Assembly (NCBI RefSeq): GCF_055900595.2
Contig: NZ_CM148325.1
Direction: 5' to 3' (one strand)
DNA: 64,000 nucleotides
Positions 52,124 to 55,346 of this stretch are shown in pieces. Every line of letters begins with the position of its first letter. The first letter of the stretch is position 1. The position numbers were made by a program, and so were the translations under genes. The notes beneath the pieces were generated by a model that saw only the letters and a program-made list of their open reading frames with translations, searched no databases and was not told the origin of the DNA.

Positions 52124-53008
52124 ATGGAACGCGTATATAGAACAGATCTTAAGTTGCTCCGTTATTTTCTTGCCGTAGCGGAAGAGTTGCATTTTGGTCG
52201 CGCAGCAGCGCGTTTAAATATGTCTCAGCCTCCGCTCAGTATTCATATTAAAGAGCTGGAAAATCAACTCGGCACGCAGCTTTTTATTCGCCATTCGCGC
52301 AGCGTCGTACTGACACACGCGGGCAAAATCTTGATGGAAGAATCGCGTCGATTGCTGGTGAATGCAAATAATATATTGGCTCGGGTTGAACAAATAGGTC
52401 GGGGAGAAGCAGGGCGGATTGAACTCGGGGTTGTGGGAACGGCAATGTGGGGACGGATGCGCCCGGTTATGCGGCGATTCCTTAGAGAAAATCCTAACGT
52501 TGAAGTTCTGTTTCGCGAAAAGATGCCCGCGATGCAAATGGCCTTGCTGGAACGCCGCGAACTTGATGCCGGGATCTGGCGAATGGCGACAGAACCACCG
52601 ACTGGTTTTACCAGCTTACGGTTGCATGAATCGGCGTTTCTGGTGGCGATGCCTGAAGAGCATCATCTCTCATCATTTTCCACCGTCCCGCTGGAAGCGC
52701 TACGTGACGAGTATTTCGTTACAATGCCGCCCGTGTACACTGACTGGGATTTTTTGCAGCGAGTTTGCCAGCAGGTGGGATTTTCACCGGTTGTTATTCG
52801 CGAAGTTAATGAACCGCAAACGGTACTCGCCATGGTCAGTATGGGTATTGGTATCACATTGATAGCGGACAGCTACGCGCAGATGAACTGGCCCGGTGTC
52901 ATATTCCGTCCGCTCAAAGAACGCATCCCGGCAGACTTATATATTGTTTATGAAACGCAGCAGGTGACGCCCGCGCTGGTTAAACTGCTGGCGGCGTTGG
53001 CGCAGTAG
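52124..53008 (+). CDS. xapR: LysR-family activator of xapAB
   Basis: Internal ATG of ORF 52109-53008; product MERVYRTDLKLLRYFLAVAEELHFGRAAARL... (294 aa). Confidence 0.9.
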   Translation: MERVYRTDLKLLRYFLAVAEELHFGRAAARLNMSQPPLSIHIKELENQLGTQLFIRHSRSVVLTHAGKILMEESRRLLVNANNILARVEQIGRGEAGRIELGVVGTAMWGRMRPVMRRFLRENPNVEVLFREKMPAMQMALLERRELDAGIWRMATEPPTGFTSLRLHESAFLVAMPEEHHLSSFSTVPLEALRDEYFVTMPPVYTDWDFLQRVCQQVGFSPVVIREVNEPQTVLAMVSMGIGITLIADSYAQMNWPGVIFRPLKERIPADLYIVYETQQVTPALVKLLAALAQ

Positions 53009-53078
53009 ATGAGAGGCACGGGAACTGCCGGACATAGTTGGTCTGATAAGCGAAGCGCATCAGGCAATTTCGCAAATT

Positions 53079-53135
53079 GCAGATAGCAAAAAAGCGCCTT
53101 TAGGGCGCTTTTTTACATTGGTGGGTCGTGCAGGA
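53079..53135. repeat. 57-bp direct repeat copy 1: terminator hairpin plus 3'-terminal fragment of tRNA-Lys
   Basis: Identical to 53235-53291 (gcagatagcaaaaaagcgcctttagggcgcttttttacattggtgggtcgtgcagga); diverges after tgcagga. Confidence 0.8.
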
Positions 53136-53234
53136 TGACTCGCTTCGCTCGCCCTTCGGGCCGTCGCCGCGAGCGGCTCCGTTGTTTCGCTGCGCTCAAC
53201 TCGAACCTGCTGCAGGTTCGAATCTTTGAGTATC

Positions 53235-53291
53235 GCAGATAGCAAAAAAGCGCCTTTAGGGCGCTTTTTTACATTGGTGGGTCGTGCAGGA
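53235..53291. repeat. 57-bp direct repeat copy 2 (terminator plus authentic 3' end of lysV)
   Basis: Identical to 53079-53135; overlaps the 3' 17 nt of lysV. Confidence 0.8.
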
Positions 53292-53350
53292 TTCGAACCT
53301 GCGACCAATTGATTAAAAGTCAACTGCTCTACCAACTGAGCTAACGACCC
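53275..53350 (-). tRNA. lysV: tRNA-Lys (anticodon UUU)
   Basis: Reverse complement reads GGGTCGTTAGCTCAGTTGGTAGAGCAGTTGACTTTTAATCAATTGGTCGCAGGTTCGAATCCTGCACGACCCACCA. Confidence 0.95.
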
Positions 53351-53354
53351 GAAG

Positions 53355-53430
53355 TGGTGGGTGATGACGGGATCGAACCGCCGACCCCCTCCTTGTAAGG
53401 GAGGTGCTCTCCCAGCTGAGCTAATCACCC
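53355..53430 (-). tRNA. valY: tRNA-Val (anticodon UAC)
   Basis: Reverse complement reads GGGTGATTAGCTCAGCTGGGAGAGCACCTCCCTTACAAGGAGGGGGTCGGCGGTTCGATCCCGTCATCACCCACCA. Confidence 0.93.
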
Positions 53431-53476
53431 ACTTCGGTACTTCACATTTTTACAAGAAATCTAGCTGGCGAGAAAG

Positions 53477-53552
53477 TGGTGGGTGATGACGGGATCGAAC
53501 CGCCGACCCCCTCCTTGTAAGGGAGGTGCTCTCCCAGCTGAGCTAATCACCC
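53477..53552 (-). tRNA. valX: tRNA-Val (anticodon UAC)
   Basis: Same 76-nt sequence as valY. Confidence 0.93.
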
Positions 53553-53596
53553 ACTTCTCAATTTCTTGCTACACGGCGGAGACTACATAAAGTAGT

Positions 53597-53672
53597 TGGT
53601 GGGTGATGACGGGATCGAACCGCCGACCCCCTCCTTGTAAGGGAGGTGCTCTCCCAGCTGAGCTAATCACCC
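53597..53672 (-). tRNA. valU: tRNA-Val (anticodon UAC)
   Basis: Same 76-nt sequence; promoter-proximal copy of the cluster. Confidence 0.93.
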
Positions 53673-53930
53673 CCGCTGTGTGGAGTCGCATTATAGGGAG
53701 AGTTCAAAATGAGTCAACGCATTTTCTAAAGAAATTGTTCGTTCGTCGTAAATTTAAGCAAGATGATCGCAAAACAGACCGTGTTGCGCAATTTGTCAAC
53801 GAAAACAATAATGCGTAAGGTTGCAACCCGAACTACATTGAGGAATCAGGCGGGAGTGATAGAATATCGCCCACTCAATTTTTCCAGGATTTGCCGGTTG
53901 TCGGCATCTTTCTAAACGTAAGGCCATTTC

Positions 53931-55346
53931 ATGAAAATCAAAACTCGCTTCGCGCCAAGCCCAACAGGCTATCTGCACGTTGGCGGCGCGCGTACTGCTC
54001 TTTACTCCTGGCTTTTTGCACGTAACCACGGCGGTGAGTTCGTGCTGCGTATTGAAGACACCGATCTTGAGCGTTCCACGCCGGAAGCTATCGAAGCCAT
54101 TATGGATGGTATGAACTGGCTGAGCCTGGAGTGGGATGAAGGTCCGTACTTCCAGACCAAACGTTTTGATCGCTACAACGCGGTGATCGATCAGATGCTG
54201 GAAGAGGGCACTGCCTATAAATGCTACTGCTCCAAAGAGCGTCTGGAAGCGCTGCGTGAAGAGCAAATGGCAAAAGGTGAGAAACCACGTTATGACGGTC
54301 GCTGCCGCCACAGTCATGAGCATCACGCTGATGATGAGCCGTGTGTCGTACGTTTTGCTAACCCGCAGGAAGGTTCTGTTGTTTTTGACGATCAGATCCG
54401 TGGTCCGATCGAGTTCAGCAACCAGGAGCTGGATGATCTGATTATCCGCCGTACCGATGGTTCCCCAACCTATAACTTCTGTGTGGTTGTCGATGACTGG
54501 GATATGGAAATCACCCACGTTATACGTGGCGAAGACCATATCAACAACACACCGCGCCAGATTAACATTCTGAAAGCGCTGAAAGCACCGGTACCGGTTT
54601 ACGCGCACGTTTCTATGATCAACGGCGATGACGGTAAAAAACTGTCCAAACGACACGGGGCGGTCAGCGTCATGCAGTATCGTGACGACGGTTATCTGCC
54701 AGAAGCATTGCTGAACTATCTGGTGCGTCTGGGCTGGTCCCACGGCGATCAGGAAATCTTCACTCGTGAAGAGATGATCAAATACTTCACTCTGAATGCC
54801 GTCAGCAAATCTGCCAGTGCGTTCAACACCGACAAGCTGCTGTGGCTGAACCATCACTACATTAACGCGTTGCCGCCGGAGTATGTTGCTACTCATTTAC
54901 AGTGGCACATTGAGCAGGAAAATATCGATACCCGTAACGGCCCGCAGCTGGCTGATCTGGTGAAACTGCTGGGCGAACGCTGCAAGACGCTGAAAGAGAT
55001 GGCACAGAGCTGCCGTTATTTCTACGAAGATTTTGCTGAGTTCGATGCTGACGCCGCGAAAAAACATCTGCGTCCGGTTGCGCGTCAGCCGCTGGAAGTG
55101 GTTCGTGACAAACTGACTGCGATTACTGACTGGACCGCTGAAAACGTTCATCACGCTATTCAGGCGACGGCGGATGAGCTGGAAGTGGGTATGGGTAAAG
55201 TTGGTATGCCGCTGCGTGTCGCCGTAACCGGTGCGGGGCAGTCTCCGGCGCTGGATGTTACCGTTCACGCAATCGGTAAGACCCGCAGTATCGAGCGTAT
55301 CAACAAAGCGCTGGCTTTTATTGCTGAACGCGAAAATCAGCAGTAA
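53931..55346 (+). CDS. gltX: glutamyl-tRNA synthetase
   Basis: 471-aa [30 protein letters not shown]... with HIGH-type and KMSKS-type (KLSKR) motifs. Confidence 0.95.

Follow-up and report, generated by a model that had tools for sequence, protein, structure and literature searches.

The lysV gene is the last member of a tRNA operon, valU-valX-valY-lysV, that runs on the minus strand from 53672 down to 53275 in the window, by which we mean the whole 64,000-nt stretch of DNA that was analysed. On one side of the operon, gltX is divergently oriented, with its start at 53932. On the other side, xapR is encoded on the plus strand, convergent with the tRNA genes, and its stop codon is located at 53008. 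The region between lysV and xapR contains a direct repeat in which the end of the tRNA gene and its terminator are found twice. The features of the locus, together with those of the related elements discussed below, are collected in Table 1.

Table 1. Features at the lysV locus and in related elements. Positions refer to the window unless a locus (L) is named.
Feature	Position	Strand	Basis or remark
gltX promoter-like site	53838-53865	+	promoter scan
valU promoter-like site, TTGACT-16-TATAAT, 11/12	53717-53690	-	fits a transcription start site (TSS) 9 nt upstream of valU
valY, valX, valU, three tRNA-Val(UAC) genes, upstream in the lysV operon	53355..53672	-	ARAGORN, Rfam
lysV, tRNA-Lys(UUU), source of the copied 3′ end	53275-53350	-	ARAGORN; Rfam tRNA, 79.2 bits
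Proximal 61-nt copy (lysV end, AUGU linker, hairpin, 12 nt)	53232..53292	-	repeat search, sequence
Proximal terminator hairpin	53244..53270	-	MFE fold; coincides with the end of the 438-nt transcript
RtT body, 95 nt	53137..53231	-	Rfam alignment; alignment with tyrT, lysT-operon and lysQ units
Palindrome UCGAACCUGC-A-GCAGGUUCGA, 10+10 nt	53201..53221	-	sequence; 11-bp hairpin in fold
Conserved 64-nt core GUUGAGCG...GGCCCGAAGGGCGAGCGAAGCGAGUC	53137..53200	-	placed exactly at the T-loop junction 58|59 of the copied tRNA-Lys
Distal 61-nt copy (tRNA-Lys 3′ fragment 53119-53136, linker, second hairpin, 12 nt)	53076..53136	-	repeat search
Distal terminator hairpin (putative)	53088..53114	.	identical to proximal; faces convergent xapR
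Non-tRNA repeat elements with an RtT-type core	L120-L123, L060-L062, L013-L015, L052-L054		Rhodanobacteraceae, Thioalkalivibrio, MAGs
TIR-bounded element, with core	L065 6515-6728; L074 10551-10768; L032 150-389		
TIR-bounded element, without core	L133 1501-1653		E. coli qseE-qseG

The surroundings of the repeat vary between strains. A 4.4-kb xap block, extending from 48672 to about 53072, is a presence/absence segment that comprises yfeN, xapA, xapB, a small DUF1427 ORF, xapR and a REP-like palindromic element (…GCCGGACATAGTTGGTCTGATAAGCGAAGCGCATCAGGCA…, 53030-53066) located past the xapR stop codon and ahead of the distal terminator. In place of the block, strains 492, SL112 and NEBExpress have a 396-bp segment that codes for an FlxA-like protein. 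Homology resumes in the xap-less strains at about 53065-53073, a few nucleotides from the distal repeat. The block has neither flanking direct repeats nor an integrase. Within the valU operon, the BW25113 assembly NZ_CP122319.1 (L001) contains two tRNA-Val genes, not three, and an 8-nt versus a 46-nt spacer is seen between two Val genes in SL112 (L011). Either the identical tRNA genes vary here in number or spacing, or the assemblies have collapsed.

The repeat unit at the 3′ end of lysV

A repeat search of the window identified two direct copies of 61 nt that are 98% identical. Their sole mismatch is T at 53078 versus C at 53234, so that the perfect stretch measures 58 nt. The period is 156 bp start-to-start, with 95 bp separating the copies, and the occurrence of such a repeat inside 2.5 kb is far beyond chance. 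The preliminary description of this region had given the duplicated segment as 57 bp; the duplication is real and its coordinates were right to within 3 nt, but the length was slightly underestimated. The tRNA portion, previously taken as 17 nt, is 18 nt according to the placement of lysV by both ARAGORN and Rfam.

Each copy consists of the last 18 nt of tRNA-Lys (ATCCTGCACGACCCACCA), an AUGU linker, the terminator hairpin and 12 further nucleotides, the repeat extending 43 nt beyond the tRNA. The 18 nt occupy 53275-53292 in lysV; their second copy, in the distal repeat, spans T-loop position 59 to the CCA. The proximal copy belongs to the real lysV gene and its terminator, while the distal one is a fragment: a truncated tRNA-Lys 3′ remnant, ending in the last 18 nt of lysV, that was duplicated together with the terminator, as had been proposed. 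Read along the tRNA strand, the order is lysV, terminator, 95-nt RtT body (identified below), 18-nt copy of the lysV 3′ end and second terminator copy. The direct repeat reported earlier thus represents the two edges of one repeat unit.

The RtT body is composed, in this order, of a degenerate 5′ strand, an inverted T-arm copy, the 5′ half of a sense T-arm, and a conserved 64-nt core. The inverted copy of the tRNA-Lys T-arm and the sense T-arm half (positions 49-58) that follows it make up the palindrome listed in Table 1. The T-arm-like motif ggttcgaatc (plus strand, 53215-53224), correctly noticed before between the copies, is an arm of this palindrome. The core is a run of small hairpins, including GCCC-GAA-GGGC and GC-GAA-GC, and the core pattern is found once in the window, at 53148-53160.

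The terminator hairpin, AAAAAAGCGCC-TTTAG-GGCGCTTTTTT (AAAAAAGCGCC-CUAAA-GGCGCUUUUUU in its minus-strand RNA form), is identical in the two copies. It forms 13 bp in the minimum-free-energy (MFE) fold, where a GCGCC/GGCGC stem is extended by A6/U6 in both copies. The end of the transcription unit is thus marked by a G+C-rich hairpin with a U-run, as in intrinsic terminators, the distal copy being a putative terminator judged by sequence and fold. Neither A6/T6 hairpin was called by a consensus terminator scan, and the hairpins are therefore taken as terminators by their fold and sequence and by the transcript size reported in the literature.

The full-length transcript of the valU operon in K-12 is 438 nt long by Northern analysis and starts 9 nt upstream of valU; RNase P cleaves 2-3 nt past the lysV CCA and so removes the terminator, and lysV and lysQ have identical terminators (Agrawal, Mohanty and Kushner 2014, PMC4176162). 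The distance in the window from the TSS at 53681 to the proximal U-run at 53244 is exactly 438 nt, and it would be 594 nt to the distal U-run. The agreement with the published size indicates that the main valU-operon transcript ends at the proximal hairpin. Since the RtT unit is located behind a terminator that ends most transcripts, RNA of the RtT body and the distal hairpin would be produced by read-through only. The A6-stem-T6 hairpin is symmetric, and the distal copy could therefore plausibly end the convergent xapR transcript. It is, plausibly, a candidate terminator for xapR and a back-up for lysV read-through. The most likely present-day effect of the lysV unit, as far as its structure and position suggest, would be to separate a very strong tRNA operon from the convergent xapR, as a spare terminator that acts in both directions.

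RtT family membership and copy-number variation in E. coli

The preliminary description had read the duplication as a truncated tRNA remnant. The remnant is there, but this view missed that the 95 bp between the copies form the body of RtT (Rfam RF00391), an element that is already catalogued and that PGAP annotates at this site. The full length of the model (1-130/130) matches the minus strand at 53119..53244 with 51.6 bits (E=4e-07 for the 64-kb window), only just above the gathering score of 45 bits; the match was repeated in a local covariance-model search of the lysV unit. Many RefSeq genomes carry a PGAP ‘RtT sRNA’ at this position, among them K-12 BW25113 and strain AST215, which is 100% identical to the window. 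The curated K-12 MG1655 record has no annotation in the lysV-side spacer, so the K-12 reference leaves this RtT blank. The PGAP label ‘processed from tyrT transcript’ is a homology label and is misleading for a unit located behind the lysV terminator. Among the literature that we found, no paper deals with the lysV unit or with host-specific RtT ends.

The lysV unit resembles other RtT units in being located 3′ of a tRNA gene on the same strand and in ending, at 53119, with the last 18 nt of that tRNA, including the CCA. The outer helix of RF00391 is degenerate, with 5 of its 9 pairs non-canonical in the Rfam alignment, and its place in the MFE fold of the unit is taken by the T-arm palindrome hairpin. 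As a result, folding and processing of the lysV unit may differ from those of the tyrT rtT RNA.

Related units are present at several tRNA loci of K-12. Rfam recognizes four at tyrT/tyrV (133-137 bits; the classical 178-bp repeats), five in the lysT operon, where one unit is found behind every Lys gene, and one at lysV. The 3′ flank of lysQ in K-12 has the arrangement terminator-RtT-18-nt tRNA-Lys end-terminator and is 1 nt off the K-12 lysV unit. Three further units, of a short form, are located in the arg operon; they fall below the Rfam gathering score and are thus unannotated RtT relatives. In this operon (L132, K-12 NC_000913.3 2816500-2820000), the argV-argY and argZ-argQ spacers are 198 nt long and the argY-argZ spacer is 62 nt long. 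The longer spacers correspond to the 62-nt spacer plus a 136-nt short-form RtT that ends in the last 18 nt of tRNA-Arg, and argQ, too, has a short-form unit behind it. Each K-12 unit finishes with the 3′-terminal nucleotides of the tRNA that it follows (Tyr, ATCCTTCCCCCACCACCA; Lys, ATCCTGCACGACCCACCA; Arg, ATCCTCCCGGATGCACCA).

The number of units changes by whole units at both lysV and lysQ, as seen in a population sample of 5426 complete E. coli genomes, from which alleles were inspected using a spread listing. The lysV alleles contain no unit (536, NEBExpress), one unit (the window, K-12, strain 492) or two units (VE-F10), each further unit adding exactly 156 bp. At lysQ, two units are present in strain LP-26-E1-261. 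Two-copy alleles are documented by examples only, as a core-repeat-core query did not separate one-copy from two-copy genomes. Three flank haplotypes were each observed with two different copy numbers. The xapR-side flank is present in 4087 of the 5426 genomes, at least 1910 of which (at least 47%) have one or more units at lysV, and a complete unit is found at lysV and/or lysQ in at least 3239 of the 5426 genomes; these figures are minimum values, as divergent flanks may escape megablast. The unit is missing from about half of the strains and is thus dispensable.

The site is therefore polymorphic across E. coli, not universally invariant. The comparison of this spacer between genomes, which had been proposed as a check, does reveal variation, yet in copy number and not in the form of island insertion. 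The suggestion that the repeat is the scar of a tRNA-cluster rearrangement is borne out in the form of tandem-repeat dynamics, with alleles of zero, one and two units. Judging from the structure of the alleles, whole units would be gained and lost by homologous recombination or replication slippage between the 61-nt repeats, and units may also be exchanged between the lysV and lysQ loci. The lysV unit is, as such, a source of assembly and typing differences between strains. Overall, the lysV feature is very probably an already-catalogued RtT unit with recombinational copy-number variation and not the att scar of an integrase-mediated insertion. Recombination by itself leaves the origin of the first lysV unit unexplained.

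The conserved core in other tRNA operons and repeat elements

A scan for the core pattern, using one genome per species, yielded at least 120 loci, all of them in Gammaproteobacteria. The 18 nt that begin with ‘ATCC’ are identical to the last 18 nt of the nearest upstream tRNA in 92 of the 151 core matches listed, and the tRNA hosts among these matches include Lys, Tyr, Ser, Arg, Gln, Pro and Asp. All 78 analysable tRNA-linked units among the matches listed, which come from many genera, have host identity starting exactly at 58|59 (left extension 0-1 nt). The extent of the copied tRNA end depends on the position of the unit. Among the matches listed, internal units, i.e. those followed by a tRNA, have repeats that stop at the CCA (18-20 nt), and in terminal units, seen behind Tyr, Lys, Pro, Gln, Ser and Asp tRNAs, the repeat continues through the terminator of the host itself and reaches 53-83 nt or more. 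The architecture at lysV is thus the standard terminal form of the family. Units behind Pro, Ser and Gln tRNAs are recognized by the Rfam RtT model.

An inverted T-arm-like segment is located upstream of the core in most units among the matches listed. The idea that this segment was copied from the host each time, which is striking by eye, was not retained: when scored among the matches listed, the unit's own host had the top score, without ties, in 42 of 71 units; the margins were small, and about zero for the lysV-type Lys units, so that the host-specificity is real but modest. A more complete tRNA copy is seen in Citrobacter (L020 384-521; L039), where the core sits exactly at 58|59 of a full-length tRNA-Tyr-like pseudogene that lies between functional tRNA-Tyr genes.

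The core itself has a recurring hairpin architecture. Hairpin hpA is present in 76 of 96 cores among the matches listed, with 42 distinct stems, and compensatory pairs are found in hpC. The folding z-scores of the cores are modest (median -1.3, matches listed). RNAalifold, applied to a MAFFT alignment of 40 cores, reported two hairpins only because the length-variable stems misalign.

Cores are also found in repeat elements unrelated to tRNA genes (Table 1), for which Rfam has no family at gathering score. In three of these loci (L120, L121 and L123), a 69-nt core interrupts one arm of an inverted repeat (AGCCGTCATTCCCGCGAAGGCGGGA|core|ATCCAGTGAC), and the uninterrupted partner arm of this 35-nt inverted repeat was found in L120 and L121. 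A second, TIR-bounded element of ~210 nt (TAAGAGCCTATCCCATTAGGC…GCCTACTGGGATAGGCTCTAA) contains the core in Pluralibacter, Edwardsiella and Photorhabdus. Its homologue in the E. coli qseE-qseG intergenic region lacks exactly the core; it is unannotated and present in about four copies per genome, and it possibly corresponds to the repeat called ‘RSA’ in earlier publications. The core is thus precisely present or absent at homologous or paralogous sites, as expected of a mobile element, in the inverted-repeat arms, in the qseE-qseG element and in the arg spacers.

The junction of the core among the matches listed always reads ...GA^(A)ATCC..., with neither target duplication nor inverted ends, although the right-flank consensus is partly a product of construction because the search pattern forced ‘ATCC’. 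The extra-genic tRNA 3′ fragments in the loci listed are directly preceded by the 3′ end of the core in 124 of 135 cases, and none of them has an intact T-loop; this lack of ‘empty’ fragments is biased, as the loci had been selected by the core. The only candidates for ‘empty’ tRNA 3′ fragments with an intact T-loop in the loci listed were ARAGORN antisense or contig-edge artefacts.

These observations bear on the origin of the unit, at a level that is compatible with its RtT identity. Conceivably, the 64-nt core is or was a miniature mobile element with GA^ATCC as its insertion site, the T-loop position 58|59 of tRNA gene copies included, and with neither target duplication nor TIRs. The tRNA 3′ fragment, together with the terminator at operon ends, would be duplicated in the course of insertion or so that an intact tRNA is restored. 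We regard this origin as a serious possibility that still falls somewhat short of even chances. The fixed 58|59 junction of the 78 tRNA-linked units and the agreement of 92 of the 151 matches listed with the end of the nearest upstream tRNA, across seven host types, argue for it, as do the Citrobacter pseudogene, the inverted repeat with one arm interrupted by the core and its partner whole, and the TIR-bounded element from whose E. coli counterpart the core is precisely absent. Filled (198-nt) and empty (62-nt) spacers occur side by side in the K-12 arg operon, and the tRNA 3′ fragments in the loci listed mostly follow directly behind the core (124/135). However, ATCC was forced by the pattern and the loci were chosen by the core, the non-tRNA cases could represent precise deletion rather than insertion, and no within-species polymorphism of the core alone was seen, the variation in E. 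coli being that of whole 156-bp units.

In our view, there is moderate evidence that the core represents, or at one time represented, a small mobile module. A more comprehensive model is offered tentatively, with somewhat less confidence than the insertion mechanism above: the RtT core of ~60-79 nt may be a discrete, structured and possibly mobile module at GA^ATCC, found at T-loop position 58|59 of partial tRNA copies in at least seven amino-acid tRNA families across the Gammaproteobacteria and as a precise indel in two unrelated repeat elements, and the lysV duplication may be the footprint that it leaves on colonizing tRNA-operon trailers. Two other ideas were rejected: an RNA-templated origin, from position 59 to the transcript 3′ end, does not account for the lysV repeat running 12 nt past the U-run, and a hammerhead-like motif (GAUGAG...GUC|A) lacks the essential C3 and U4 and has no Rfam hit.

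The wider pattern, consisting of the last 18 nt of the unit's own host, the 58|59 junction and the precise indel in non-tRNA repeats, is of more interest than the lysV unit. Should it be confirmed, RtT would cease to be an unexplained curiosity of E. coli and become a widespread element whose origin is open to test. A mobile core, if true, would explain the origin of the tyrT repeats, which were sequenced in 1978 and for which, to our knowledge, no explanation has been given since.

Alternative readings and comparison with known systems

The unit could also be a functional sRNA gene or a cis-regulatory RNA similar to tyrT rtT, i.e. a read-through product whose tRNA-like 3′ end is matured and which acts on tRNA processing or the stringent response. 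For tyrT, Bosl and Kersten (1991; cited in PMC3318445 and in a 2024 mobilome preprint) are reported to have described an rtT RNA that is released by processing and influences relA-dependent growth. Membership in the RtT family and the core hairpin architecture, kept across many stem sequences (hpA and hpC, matches listed), are consistent with such a role. In addition, the distal tRNA 3′ end and its AUGU linker recreate the RNase P cleavage context that has been described for lysV (PMC4176162). However, the full-length transcript of 438 nt is terminated before it reaches the unit, about half of the E. coli strains do without the unit on otherwise identical flanks, its outer helix is degenerate in the lysV copy, and the folding z-scores of the cores are modest among the matches listed. 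A functional RNA at lysV therefore seems unlikely.

Integrase scars are classically recognized by a direct repeat containing a tRNA 3′ fragment (Reiter 1989; Williams 2002; both cited in PMC9897764), and the preliminary description had considered integration or excision at the tRNA 3′ end, by which the lysV repeat would be an attL/attR-type scar of an integrase-mediated element that was later lost. The 61-nt direct repeat with its 18 nt of lysV and the variable 4.4-kb xap block adjoining the distal copy would fit such a history, but we consider it highly improbable, because the repeats enclose only 95 bp, without integrase or cargo, in every allele examined; because the repeat runs 43 nt past the tRNA; because the identical architecture recurs at lysQ and related units occur between co-transcribed tRNA genes inside operons; and because direct repeats do not flank the xap block and the presence of RtT does not depend on that of xap, all four combinations being found. 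It had been correctly observed that the site has neither integrase nor cargo now, and no integrase or element genes were found between the repeats in the alleles sampled among the 5426 genomes, a sampling that rare island-bearing strains could escape. The search for a matching att core also speaks against integration: the unit has no match among 50,697 phage records, and its 23 hits in a plasmid collection are all non-mobilizable and mostly Mb-sized mislabelled chromosomes. The lysV feature is already known as a PGAP-annotated Rfam RtT, and it should be regarded neither as an integration scar nor as a new element.

Compared with integrase attL/attR repeats, the lysV feature shares a direct repeat with a tRNA 3′ end and a boundary in the T-loop region. 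It differs from them in that integrase, cargo and attP are absent, the repeat includes the terminator, a conserved 64-nt core is present at the T-loop junction, and the arrangement recurs inside operons.

A close relative is the 3′ flank of lysQ, which has the same unit architecture and, as at lysV, one or two copies depending on the strain. The two loci differ in the end of the distal repeat, which stops 5 nt past the U-run at lysQ and 12 nt past it at lysV, and in the flanking gene, which is nadA at lysQ and xapR at lysV.

The RtT (RF00391) units of tyrT/tyrV, i.e. the 178-bp repeats (rttR, tpr), share with the lysV unit a full-length covariance-model match above the cut-off, a location 3′ of a tRNA on the same strand, the tRNA's own end including the CCA, the ability to be tandemly repeated, and the core ...ACG-CCCGAAGGG-GA...GAGTM|ATCC. 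In contrast to the tyrT RtT, the lysV unit has tRNA-Lys instead of tRNA-Tyr as its host and a much lower score (51.6 versus 133-137 bits), and a T-arm palindrome replaces the outer helix, which is degenerate. It also includes the terminator and is located behind the functional terminator of the operon, has a period of 156 bp instead of 178 bp, and is devoid of a tpr-like ORF.

As for the core, miniature elements of the IS200/IS605 type (PATEs) and REP elements are small and hairpin-rich, have neither TIRs nor target duplication, and use a short specific target sequence. The core resembles these elements in each of these properties, but differs in that the conserved part of its putative target appears to lie on the 3′ side (ATCC).
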